Source of the DNA: an uncultured Fimbriimonadaceae bacterium
GTDB taxonomy: Bacteria > Armatimonadota > Fimbriimonadia > Fimbriimonadales > Fimbriimonadaceae
Assembly: GCA_965652385.1 (NCBI GenBank)
Contig: CBFGUV010000003.1
Location: 41,411-105,410, forward strand
Length of the DNA: 64,000 bases
Direction of reading: 5' to 3'
Position numbers and translations under genes: made by a program. Of this stretch, positions 41,638 through 44,429 are shown piece after piece; the stretch's first letter is position 1; each line of letters begins with the position of its first letter. Below the pieces are notes generated by a model that did not search any database, was not told the origin of the DNA, and worked only from the letters and a program-made list of their open reading frames with translations.

Positions 41638-42762
41638 CTAGTAGCGGAAGATTGCCGCCGCCGGTGCTTCGGAGAGCATCATCTCTGGATCAAGGGTGCA
41701 GACTTCGCCGCTCTTGAGCAGGGTCGCGATGGCCGCTTCATTGACCTTCTCGCCATCCTTCCCCGTCGGCGGGGTGCCATCCATCGAAATCAGCAGGGTT
41801 TCGACCCGCCCCGCCTCGGCGGCATCATTGATCTCGCTGATGATCGAGGAGGCGACGCCTTTCGCATTCAGTTCGCGGAAGCGCTCTAGCGTCTCCTTTT
41901 CTCGCTTGTCGAACTTCGGCGCGATCTTCTCCCAGGCTTCCCGGTGAAGCTCCTCTATCGGCCGATGCTCCTGGTTGCCGTGGATCTCGGCTTCGATCAG
42001 CTCTGCGGACTGGTTGGCTTCTCGATAGATCGGCAGAAGATAGTCCACGCCTGCCAAAACCACCGGACCCGGCACGTTGTTGAAGACCGGATGCAGGCCC
42101 TTGTCCACCATATCGAAGTAGCGCTTCAGATTCACCTTGTGCTCCTCCATGCCCGTCTTGTCGCCCGTGCCGTGGAACATGGCCGCCCGACCCGCGCCGC
42201 TGGGATTGTTGCCGGCTCTGGTGTGCCATTGCAGCTGCTTCTGGTTGTCGTCGGCAAAAAGGGCCTCGGCCATGCTGGTGGGCACACCCTGCAGCCGGAC
42301 TTCATACAGGCTGAAGCGGTTGGCATCATACAGCTTCACTTCGTCTTCGCTGAGCGCGAGAATGTAGAAGCGTCCGTTGCGGCTGAGCAGAGGCATCAGC
42401 GGAAGAATGTGAAACCGCTTGTTGACAGACTGCATCTCGGGGGCATCGATGGGCAGCCGATAGATCTTGGTCATGCCCGGCGCGATGAAGAGCGCGAGCC
42501 CCTCTTCCTGATTCGTCCAGAACTCCTGATCTTCACGGAGCTTGTCGGCTTCTGCCAGGAGTTCGTCGATCTCTCGCTGGTCCCGGCCCTGCTGCGAAAG
42601 CTCTTCTCGCACGGACTTCAGCAGGTTCTTCAGCCGGATGGGATCCTGAGCGGTCTCGCTGCCCTTGCGGTGGGTGGGCATATAGATTGAAATGGCCGGC
42701 TCGTGCGCTTGGCCGACCAGCTCTTCCACTTCCTTTCGAGTTGGCACATCGGGATGACGCAT
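41638..42762 (-). CDS. Bacterial eRF1-like (baeRF family) domain protein; assignment from memory of family features
   Basis: The N-terminus ISIYMPTHRKGSETAQDPIRLKNLL and central MFHGTGD loop resemble what I recall of baeRF-type proteins. 374 aa. Confidence 0.5.
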   Translation of the reverse strand: MRHPDVPTRKEVEELVGQAHEPAISIYMPTHRKGSETAQDPIRLKNLLKSVREELSQQGRDQREIDELLAEADKLREDQEFWTNQEEGLALFIAPGMTKIYRLPIDAPEMQSVNKRFHILPLMPLLSRNGRFYILALSEDEVKLYDANRFSLYEVRLQGVPTSMAEALFADDNQKQLQWHTRAGNNPSGAGRAAMFHGTGDKTGMEEHKVNLKRYFDMVDKGLHPVFNNVPGPVVLAGVDYLLPIYREANQSAELIEAEIHGNQEHRPIEELHREAWEKIAPKFDKREKETLERFRELNAKGVASSIISEINDAAEAGRVETLLISMDGTPPTGKDGEKVNEAAIATLLKSGEVCTLDPEMMLSEAPAAAIFRY

Positions 42763-42799: not shown

Positions 42800-43249
42800 C
42801 TATTTCTGACCGCAGCAGCCGTCCGAATCCGTGCGGAAGCCGGGCACCATCTGCATCGGGCGGTTCTGGAAATCGACGCCGATCATGTCGTCGAGCAGGA
42901 TGTACACCTCCCAGGAGTGGCCATCGGGGTCGGTGACCCATATCTTGTCCTGCTTGGCGTAGCAGCACTCGACCTCCTCTTCGGCGAAAGTGGTCAAACC
43001 GGCCTCGACCATGCGGGTCTTGATCAGGTCCAGCCTGTCTGCCGATTCCAGCAGAATGCCCAGATGGTCCAGGCTTCCCTTCCCTGCAGCTTCACCCTGA
43101 GTGAGAGCCAGCTTGAGGGGAGGCTCAGCCACATCGAAGTTGGCGTAATCGGGCTGCACCTTATGCGGCGGCTGGCCGAAGAAGGCTTCGTAGAATCGGA
43201 TTGAAGCCTCCAGGTCGCGCACGATCAGCGAGAGGTGCATCTTGACCAT
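42800..43249 (-). CDS. ArsI/CadI-family VOC (glyoxalase-fold) metalloenzyme
   Basis: MHLSLIVRDLEASIRFYEAFFG, DHLGILLES, and the family-typical ECCYAKQDKIWVTDPDGHSWEVY with vicinal cysteines. Its ATG overlaps the gdx stop (TGATG). Confidence 0.78.
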   Translation of the reverse strand: MVKMHLSLIVRDLEASIRFYEAFFGQPPHKVQPDYANFDVAEPPLKLALTQGEAAGKGSLDHLGILLESADRLDLIKTRMVEAGLTTFAEEEVECCYAKQDKIWVTDPDGHSWEVYILLDDMIGVDFQNRPMQMVPGFRTDSDGCCGQK

Positions 43250-43599
43250 CAGGCTTCTATCCTACTCTCGTTGGGCGCTTCGTGAGACGCGCTGATCTTG
43301 AGCCCCGCCACGCCGCACAGAATCAAAGCGATGCAGAGGAGCCGGGCGAGCGATGCCGATTCTCCGAAGAGGATGATTCCGGCGATCGCCGTGCCGGACA
43401 TGCCGATTCCCGTCCAGATGGCAAAGGCGGTGCCGATAGGCAGGGAGCGCACGGAGAACGCCAGCAGAATGACGCTTGCCGCCATGAAGATGACGGTGCT
43501 GACCGAAGGCCAAAGTCGAGTGAAGCCCTCAGAATTCTTGAGGCAGACCGCCCAGACGATTTCGAGAAGGCCCGCGATGAGGAGGAGTGTCCAGTTCAT
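43249..43599 (-). CDS. sugE: SMR-family guanidinium exporter (Gdx/SugE)
   Basis: [26 protein letters not shown], four TM helices, 116 aa. A guanidine-II riboswitch lies directly upstream. Confidence 0.9.
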
Positions 43600-43618
43600 T
43601 TTGCTTTCAGGAGTTGAG

Positions 43619-43669
43619 AGGGGCCGTCCCCTGAAAGGCGAAAGAAGAGCCGGGTCGTCCCGACTCTTC
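43619..43669 (-). promoter_or_regulatory. Guanidine-II (mini-ykkC) riboswitch
   Basis: On the minus strand there are two tandem hairpins, each with an ACGR tetraloop closed by G-C pairs. P1 is GAAGAGUCGGG-ACGA-CCCGGCUCUUC (43644..43669). P2 is AGGGG-ACGG-CCCCU (43619..43632). The linker is about 11 nt, and P2 ends 19 nt before the sugE AUG. Confidence 0.85.
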
Positions 43670-43697
43670 TCAAGCTACCTGAACCGATATCGAAGGC

Positions 43698-44429
43698 CTA
43701 GGGTTTGGTGGCGACAAATTCCTTCCAAAGCTCCGCCGGCTCTTTGCCGGTCAGCTCTTTGAACACCGGCATCGGGTCTTCCCGCTTCCGCATGGCGCGG
43801 TCGAGGGCGGGAACCAGGCCCATGTTGTACTTGCGCGACGTCCAGGCCAGGAAGTACGCGGTGGTCCGGTAAGAGTTGTCGTAGTTGTTGCGCTCGGGGT
43901 CGATGCGCGGCCGGGGCGCTTCCGGCTCATACCGCCACCAGCGGATGTAGTCGGCGATGCCCTCTACCAGCCAGCCCGGTTTGGTGCGGCTGTTGGGGTA
44001 CTGCTGGATGACGTGGGTCATCTCGTGGATCACCACACCAAGGTCATCCGGATGCTCGGTGATCCACTTTCCGCTGATCGTGATGTCGCCGCCACTGGCC
44101 CATGCCGGGGCGCTGATCTCCTTCTTGATGATGAGGCGTATCTGGTCAGGCGCCTTGTAGTCTTCGGTCGCCAGCAGGGTGGTCACGGTGCTGAACCACT
44201 TCTCCACCAGCGCCTTGGCCGCATTGCCCCAGGCCTCTCCTTCGGGAAAGTCGGTCGCATCCACCACGACGGGCGGACACTCGATCGGCTTGGCCAGCGG
44301 ATAGACGTAGCGGTCCAGGTCATCGGACTGCGGCGAGCCGATCAGGCTGGCGGCAAGCAGAAGCAGGGCGGATGAAGGCATGATTCCAAGATAGCACGGC
44401 AAAAACGAAAACGGCCCCCCAACCTTCAT
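43698..44429 (-). CDS. Basic secretory protein-like peptidase (peptidase of plants and bacteria, BSP family)
   Basis: Signal peptide, then VIHEMTHVIQQY...GWLVEGIADYIRW (HExxH plus EGxADY). Confidence 0.75.
   Translation of the reverse strand: MKVGGPFSFLPCYLGIMPSSALLLLAASLIGSPQSDDLDRYVYPLAKPIECPPVVVDATDFPEGEAWGNAAKALVEKWFSTVTTLLATEDYKAPDQIRLIIKKEISAPAWASGGDITISGKWITEHPDDLGVVIHEMTHVIQQYPNSRTKPGWLVEGIADYIRWWRYEPEAPRPRIDPERNNYDNSYRTTAYFLAWTSRKYNMGLVPALDRAMRKREDPMPVFKELTGKEPAELWKEFVATKP

Follow-up and report, generated by a model that had tools for sequence, protein, structure and literature searches.

Why does a gene for an ArsI/CadI-family enzyme begin inside the stop codon of a guanidine riboswitch-controlled exporter gene, and does this gene order tell us what the enzyme does? 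The locus lies on the minus strand of a 64,000-nt stretch of DNA (the window; contig CBFGUV010000003.1 of assembly GCA_965652385.1, positions 41,411 to 105,410) from an uncultured Fimbriimonadaceae bacterium of the phylum Armatimonadota, whose genome (3.49 Mb) is 99.5% complete. A guanidine-II riboswitch precedes a gdx (sugE)-type gene of the SMR family, and the gdx gene is followed directly by a gene for a glyoxalase-fold VOC metalloenzyme of the ArsI/CadI family. The riboswitch and the exporter gene alone are textbook and would simply add a further guanidine-II case to the few in this phylum. The second gene is not. We put a probability of roughly 0.6 on the reading that a genuine guanidine-II translational ON switch sits over a translationally coupled gdx-VOC unit, in which the VOC protein is a captured, ordinary-looking ArsI/CadI metalloenzyme. 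Under this reading an ArsI/CadI enzyme appears to have swapped a metal-sensing repressor for guanidine control by way of translational coupling, a natural case of regulon capture, and the locus would caution that function is not safely deduced from the operon of a single lineage.

The riboswitch and its predicted switching

The Rfam Guanidine-II covariance model (RF01068) matched positions 43619-43666 of the minus strand end to end, scoring 43.5 bits where the gathering threshold is 32 (E = 2.5e-5 in the window), and this match was the single one in a scan of the whole genome (E = 3.1e-7). Both hairpins, P1 and P2, carry ACGR tetraloops closed by G-C pairs (GGG-ACGA-CCC and GGGG-ACGG-CCCC), and 19 nt separate P2 from the AUG of gdx (43599-43597). 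A first-pass annotation made from the letters of this DNA had called a guanidine-II (mini-ykkC) riboswitch 5' of a sugE/gdx-type gene. Its hairpin sequences, coordinates and 19-nt spacing were all borne out when the minus strand was read, and the covariance score, together with the NCBIfam SugE score of the gene (Table 1), confirmed the call. Orthologous riboswitches stand at the same position 5' of the orthologous gdx genes in two metagenomic contigs, L081 (43.6 bits) and L196 (43.5 bits). Judged by its sequence, the element is a genuine guanidine-II riboswitch and an ordinary member of its class, which would be expected to respond to guanidine. The class has been described as mostly proteobacterial (PMC12186494), and our survey of 301 Armatimonadota genomes found a match in eight.

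The leader shares with that of E. coli sugE/gdx the two ACGR hairpins closed by G-C pairs, a 14-nt linker between P1 and P2 (43633-43646 in the Rfam alignment), a position directly 5' of an SMR-family Gdx gene, and a mechanism predicted to turn translation on by freeing the ribosome-binding site. It differs in that P1 is extended to 13 bp, that the occluded region is A-rich and has no clear Shine-Dalgarno sequence, and that it heads two putatively coupled genes, the second of which has no known association with guanidine.

P2 does not form in the predicted ligand-free fold of the leader. A 10-bp anti-P2 helix appears instead, and is both the minimum free energy (MFE) and the centroid structure in the window and in L081. 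One of its strands, CUUUCAGGGG, consists of part of the linker and the whole 5' strand of P2, so that the helix excludes P2; the first half of this strand is the 3' part (CUUUC) of the pyrimidine-rich stretch UCGCCUUUC. The helix covers positions -14 to -5 before the gdx AUG, ending 5 nt from it. We aligned the three full riboswitch sequences available (window, L196 and L081), all closely related. P1 shows three two-sided changes, one from G-C to A-U and two from A-U to G-C, and two one-sided ones; P2 is invariant. All cells of the anti-P2 helix are paired in the three sequences, with one compensatory change from C-G to U-A and one from G-U to G-C. As a slide control, the partners were shifted by 1 to 3 columns, whereupon pairing of the P1 and anti-P2 cells fell from 98-100% to 37-74%. 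Covariation drawn from three such close relatives is suggestive for both helices.

Guanidine-II riboswitches are translational switches in which ligand binding frees the Shine-Dalgarno sequence or ribosome-binding site (PMC12186494), and an anti-P2 helix that covers the ribosome-binding region fits this published ON mechanism. We propose the following sequence of events. With no ligand, the linker and the 5' strand of P2 (CUUUCAGGGG) would pair with CUCCUGAAAG, blocking P2 and burying the ribosome landing site. When guanidinium occupies the ACGA and ACGG loops, it would stabilise a loop-loop complex of P1 and P2 and thereby let P2 form, upon which the ribosome-binding region would be free and gdx could be translated.

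Proposed coupling of the VOC gene to gdx

Base 43249 belongs both to the gdx stop codon TGA (43251-43249) and to the VOC start codon ATG (43249-43247). The first-pass annotation had also reported this TGATG overlap with an ArsI/CadI-family gene bearing a CCYAKQDK motif, and the sequence, the family score (Table 1) and the conservation of the layout in relatives all agree with it. The relatives are three syntenic metagenomic contigs, which together with the window make four. L081 has the order BSP peptidase, riboswitch, gdx, VOC and baeRF, with a VOC protein 87% and a Gdx 77% identical to those of the window; L196 holds the riboswitch, gdx (96% identity at the protein level) and the start of the VOC gene; and L088 holds the tail of gdx, the VOC gene (79% protein identity) and the start of baeRF. 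The stop/start overlap is kept in all four despite changes of the stop codon, as TGATG (window and L196), TAATG (L081) and ATGA (L088). The pairing is confined to this one narrow lineage, in which VOC identity is at least 79% in the two relatives that have the whole gene.

The Gdx protein runs about 11 amino acids beyond the usual C-terminus (43249-43284, minus strand). The final 17 or so nucleotides of gdx, GAGAGTAGNATAGAAGC, are near-invariant at the DNA level among the relatives, though they encode this non-canonical tail, which is consistent with a role as the ribosome-binding site of the VOC gene; we consider that this is probably what they are. No sigma-70-like promoter and no terminator-like hairpin was found between gdx and the VOC gene, nor between the VOC gene and the baeRF-like gene that follows it, a weak test in this phylum. 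Since the overlap is kept and no promoter or terminator was seen between the two genes, we infer coupling by termination and reinitiation: ribosomes that end at the gdx UGA would re-initiate at the overlapping VOC AUG and make VOC protein in step with Gdx. Such coupling would pass the translational control of the riboswitch on to the VOC gene.

The two genes could instead be independent, with a VOC promoter inside gdx, expression regardless of guanidine and an overlap that is nothing but compact packing. Gene overlaps are common in compact genomes, and the promoter types of Armatimonadota are poorly known, which weakens a negative promoter scan. Packing alone does not lead one to expect that the ATG would stay on the stop codon through three different stop contexts, or that GAGAGTAGNATAGAAGC would be as nearly invariant as a VOC ribosome-binding site should be, and the scan between the genes, such as it is, found no promoter-like site. 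We regard independence as unlikely, and coupling under the riboswitch as the better account of the junction.

Table 1. Features of the gdx-VOC locus, in positions of the window. Scores are followed by the family cut-off where there is one.
Feature	Position	Strand	Evidence or remark
BSP-family peptidase gene	43698-44429	-	ends 31 nt before the Rfam P1 core and 26 nt before the extended stem
Extended P1, 13-bp stem, ACGA tetraloop at 43655-43658, Rfam core 43647-43666	43642..43671	-	Rfam alignment and MFE fold
Hairpin P1, GAAGAGUCGGG-ACGA-CCCGGCUCUUC	43644-43669	-	sequence
Pyrimidine-rich stretch UCGCCUUUC between extended P1 and P2	43633..43641	-	sequence, fold
Hairpin P2, AGGGG-ACGG-CCCCU	43619..43632	-	Rfam alignment
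Predicted alternative OFF helix, CUUUCAGGGG (43628-43637) with CUCCUGAAAG (43604-43613)	43604..43637	-	MFE and centroid fold
gdx/sugE-type SMR gene, 116 aa	43249..43599	-	PF00893, 102 bits; NCBIfam SugE (NF008512 equivalog), 136 against 126
TGATG stop/start overlap of gdx and VOC	43247..43251	-	sequence
ArsI/CadI-family VOC (glyoxalase-fold) metalloenzyme gene, 149 aa	42800..43249	-	NCBIfam ArsI_CadI_VOC (NF041414), 153.2 bits against 116
baeRF/ribosome-hibernation-factor-like gene, 37 nt downstream of VOC	41638..42762	-	Pfam baeRF_family3, 139 bits

A natural Phe59 in the exporter

The Gdx protein aligns without gaps to residues 1-104 of Gdx-Clo (PDB 6WK5/6WK8; phmmer E = 8e-27). It shares E13, W16, S42 and W62 with Gdx-Clo and with E. 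coli Gdx (SugE), these four residues being invariant in our alignment, and like them it has G10, A17, M39 and K101 and is under riboswitch control. Six positions discriminate Gdx from Qac proteins, namely G10, W16, A17, M39, A67 and K101 in Gdx, with Ile at 67 in Qac (PMC11194549). Here five of the six (G10, W16, A17, M39 and K101) are of the Gdx type, whereas Met at position 67 matches neither the Ala of Gdx nor the Ile of Qac. The protein further differs from Gdx-Clo and E. coli Gdx in having Asn22 for Tyr, Met67 for Ala, a tail of about 11 amino acids whose coding sequence overlaps the putative ribosome-binding site of the next gene, and, above all, Phe at position 59.

Tyr59 has been called "absolutely conserved among SMR proteins"; it makes an essential hydrogen bond to Glu13, and the Y59F mutant of Gdx-Clo is inactive (PMC7695847). 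In the window, codon 59 is TTT (43423-43425, minus strand), giving GTAFAIW where Gdx-Clo has GTAYAIW, and the same codon is found in L196 and L081. None of the other 118 nearest homologues has Phe59, nor do Gdx-Clo and the five riboswitch-linked Gdx proteins that we aligned from this phylum. The motif GT[AG]F-A[IVM]WTG had 19 matches in 185,579 species genomes, none of them an SMR protein, while the Tyr version had at least 120 matches, with 119 of the matches listed being gdx. The gene has a ratio of non-synonymous to synonymous substitution rates (dN/dS) of 0.14 over 116 codons at dS 1.1, which indicates purifying selection, and its frame is intact in the three relatives. To find a Phe59 Gdx encoded in a selected, riboswitch-controlled gene is new with this analysis, as far as sequences can say. 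Structural work regards Tyr59 as the switch on which the SMR transport cycle depends. If the protein transports, the proposed mechanism of competition between Tyr59 and Glu13 would need a bypass, and if it does not, the gene must serve some other role. Because the defining Tyr59 is missing, we call it a Gdx-like protein and do not take guanidinium export for granted. The nearest homologues that have Tyr59 (69% identity, from Verrucomicrobia) are encoded by monocistronic genes that lack an Rfam riboswitch, and therefore no donor cassette was identified.

Phe59, Asn22, Met67, the C-terminal extension and the pairing with a VOC gene all occur together, and in this lineage only. This raises the possibility that the Phe59 SMR protein and the ArsI-like enzyme are a co-adapted module, the transporter having, for example, changed its mechanism or substrate to suit the substrate or product of the enzyme, still under the control of guanidine or a substituted guanidine. 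A residue at 59 that no other SMR protein of this motif context showed in so large a set of genomes, the purifying selection on gdx, and the fact that position 67 is itself a Gdx/Qac discriminator all speak for such a change. On the other hand, the four contigs count in effect as a single evolutionary event, and the combination may be one historical accident; E13, W16, S42 and W62 are kept and five of the six discriminator positions are those of a Gdx; and there is no known chemistry that connects guanidinium with the arsenic- and cadmium-thiol chemistry of ArsI. The co-occurrence of Phe59, tail and VOC gene may be coincidence or co-adaptation, and we give the co-adapted module rather long odds, a little longer than those of independent genes. 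Somewhat longer again are the odds on its strongest form, a new guanidine-responsive detoxification module made of a co-evolved pair, with an exporter that either works without the Tyr59 switch or is no longer a guanidinium/H+ antiporter, and a Cys-pair dioxygenase whose substrate is tied to guanidine stress. Were this so, the odd Phe59 and the unique pairing would be two sides of one adaptation.

An ArsI/CadI-family enzyme in an unusual place

The best PDB matches of the VOC protein are the ArsI C-As lyase of Thermomonospora curvata (TcArsI; 5c4p and related entries, E = 1e-34). In TcArsI, Gln8, His65 and Glu117 are the metal ligands and Cys98-Cys99 bind the organoarsenical (PMC6138428). H5, H62 and E114 of the VOC protein align with these Fe(II) ligands and C95-C96 with the cysteine pair, which opens the CCYAKQDK motif (residues 95-102). 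In an alignment of 27 family members H62, E114, C95, C96 and the CCYAxQDK-W loop are invariant, and the dN/dS of the VOC gene is 0.09, again indicating purifying selection. Fold and family, metal triad, C-terminal Cys pair and CCYA(K/V)QDK substrate-binding loop are common to the VOC protein, TcArsI (5C4P/5CB9), the ArsI of Bacillus sp. MD1 and M. tuberculosis CadI. By sequence its active site is indistinguishable from that of ArsI, even with the first metal ligand being His here and Gln in TcArsI. With its vicinal dithiol site intact, the enzyme would seem suited to soft metals or metalloids and not to guanidinium, and it most likely keeps the thiophilic metalloid chemistry of a C-As lyase.

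Two further features set the protein apart from known ArsI and CadI proteins. The first is a C-terminal ...MQMVPGFR... tail with a terminal CC (42800-42880, minus strand), which places it in a subclade: a ...R.MQM.PGFR tail is common to the eight closest homologues listed (P0001-P0008, 62-87% identity), including six non-syntenic ones at 62-69%, and this tail is not found in canonical ArsI structures. The second is its position, behind gdx and under a guanidine riboswitch, with no ArsR, aquaglyceroporin or other ars gene nearby; a check of the locus neighbours for ArsR, MIP and Acr3 genes in particular returned none.

To see how often this pairing occurs, we took 160 other ArsI/CadI loci, half of them the 80 nearest among 185,579 species genomes and half the 80 nearest from JGI metagenomes. 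A tblastn search with Gdx found no SMR gene adjacent to the VOC gene in any of them, the one match lying 2.6 kb away on the opposite strand, and none has a guanidine-II motif 5' of the VOC gene in a regular-expression search (guanidine-I, -III and -IV were not scanned across the 160). The sole match of that expression, in L178, falls inside a pseudouridine-synthase-like open reading frame and was set aside as a chance match. An Rfam scan of 12 close loci found a riboswitch in L081 only. The usual company of ArsI/CadI genes, by neighbour clustering, is a MIP aquaglyceroporin (65 of 160 loci) or an ArsR-family repressor (44 of 160). Looking from the other side, no ArsI/CadI gene was found in any of 119 gdx loci of 8 kb, sampled across prokaryotes from the Tyr59-motif matches listed, and no VOC gene at the seven other guanidine-II loci of the phylum (six precede gdx, one then DoxX). 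A VOC homologue occurs in 8 of the 61 genomes of the organism's taxonomic family; several of these homologues adjoin ArsR-like genes or MIP, and none adjoins gdx. The VOC gene is missing from another genome of the genus, which is 77% complete. The closest non-syntenic homologues that we looked up (61-67% identity, tblastn) stand behind a GNAT gene, behind a gene for an unknown 249-aa protein or with no gene directly upstream on the same strand, and have neither riboswitch nor gdx. Neighbours in the closest subclade (GNAT, nitroreductase and two unknown proteins) were compared with arsenic-specific families such as ArsN and gave no specific match.

With the pairing in one lineage only and an ars context elsewhere in the family, a single capture event is the simplest reading. 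In one small Armatimonadota lineage an ArsI/CadI gene would have been captured behind gdx, losing the usual ArsR control and gaining control by guanidine. The subclade of the captured gene may already have lost ArsR control, and the gene would have been kept behind gdx since then. Its link to guanidine could be adaptive or accidental.

The first-pass annotation went further and proposed that the enzyme acts on a guanidino compound, and so is a new member of the guanidine regulon. In this scenario the VOC protein would be a true guanidine-regulon enzyme that works on guanidine or a guanidino compound and not on organoarsenicals or cadmium. The tight coupling to a guanidine-controlled gene, in a layout under purifying selection in four contigs, is what one would expect of such an enzyme, and so are a subclade free of ArsR and ars neighbours and a position away from the genome's own ars cluster. 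A proposal drawn from the gene order of one lineage is a weak inference, however, when the active site is an intact arsenic-type one: no catalytic or substrate-binding residue of ArsI varies, and the As(III)-binding vicinal Cys pair is among those kept. Nor does the pairing recur as it would in a general regulon: it is missing from all 160 other family loci, from all 119 gdx loci sampled and from the phylum's seven other guanidine-II loci, and the nearest non-syntenic members of the subclade have no gdx or riboswitch. The survey of ArsI/CadI-like genes behind guanidine riboswitches that the annotation had called for thus yielded none beyond this lineage, as regards guanidine-II and the loci sampled. 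A literature search found no paper connecting guanidine riboswitches with glyoxalase, VOC or ArsI, and those parts of the guanidine-IV paper's supplementary lists of genes near candidate riboswitches that we could consult hold no glyoxalase/VOC or COG0346 entry. We therefore think it improbable that the enzyme belongs to a guanidine pathway, more so than that the pair is co-adapted, and prefer a captured ArsI/CadI enzyme.

In two metagenomic lineages, a gene for a protein of about 250 amino acids with no Pfam or NCBIfam match stands directly 5' of a VOC homologue, on the same strand and with a gap of 10-13 nt (L082 3242-3991 and L089 2-766). This protein may be a real partner of the VOC subclade.

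Weighing the capture reading

Several observations weigh against a captured enzyme under a working guanidine switch, and they bear on different parts of it. The Y59F mutation abolishes exchange in Gdx-Clo (PMC7695847), and a plain role as guanidinium exporter may therefore be wrong for the first gene. For the second, neither ArsR nor ars genes adjoin the nearest VOC subclade (60-66% identity and a PGFR tail), which makes the substrate less certain than the family name implies. The covariation is thin, coming as it does from just three closely related full riboswitch sequences, and the occluded stretch, GAAAG in the window and AAAAG in L081, is such a poor match to a Shine-Dalgarno sequence that the exact target of occlusion is uncertain. 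Finally, Armatimonadota promoters may differ from the sigma-70 consensus, so that an internal VOC promoter is conceivable. The least credible alternative is that Y59F has inactivated Gdx and left the riboswitch to act, in effect, on the downstream gene or genes only, since a decaying exporter gene would hardly show the purifying selection, the intact frames in three relatives and the conserved TTT at codon 59 that we see.

Flanking genes and the separate ars cluster

The VOC gene is followed by a baeRF-like gene that is syntenic in L081 and L088. Among NCBIfam models it comes closest to the AOC03_06830 ribosome-hibernation-factor family, at 157 bits far under the cut-off of 330, and its homologues in the taxonomic family are 31-41% identical and not syntenic. 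The gene may lie on the same transcript as the VOC gene. It has a ribosome-binding site of its own, GGAAAGGG, and so would not be coupled to VOC translation. On the other side, there is no terminator-like site between the BSP-family peptidase gene and the riboswitch; given how short this gap is, the gdx promoter may lie inside the peptidase gene, or a longer read-through transcript may cover the locus.

The genome also carries a separate ars cluster, on a contig of 3.9 kb (C83), which encodes an LMW-PTP-type ArsC, an OsmC-like protein, Acr3 (368 bits against a cut-off of 283), a Grx-type ArsC and ArsH. There is no arsI in this cluster. The contig is very short, which may indicate a repeat or mobile region.

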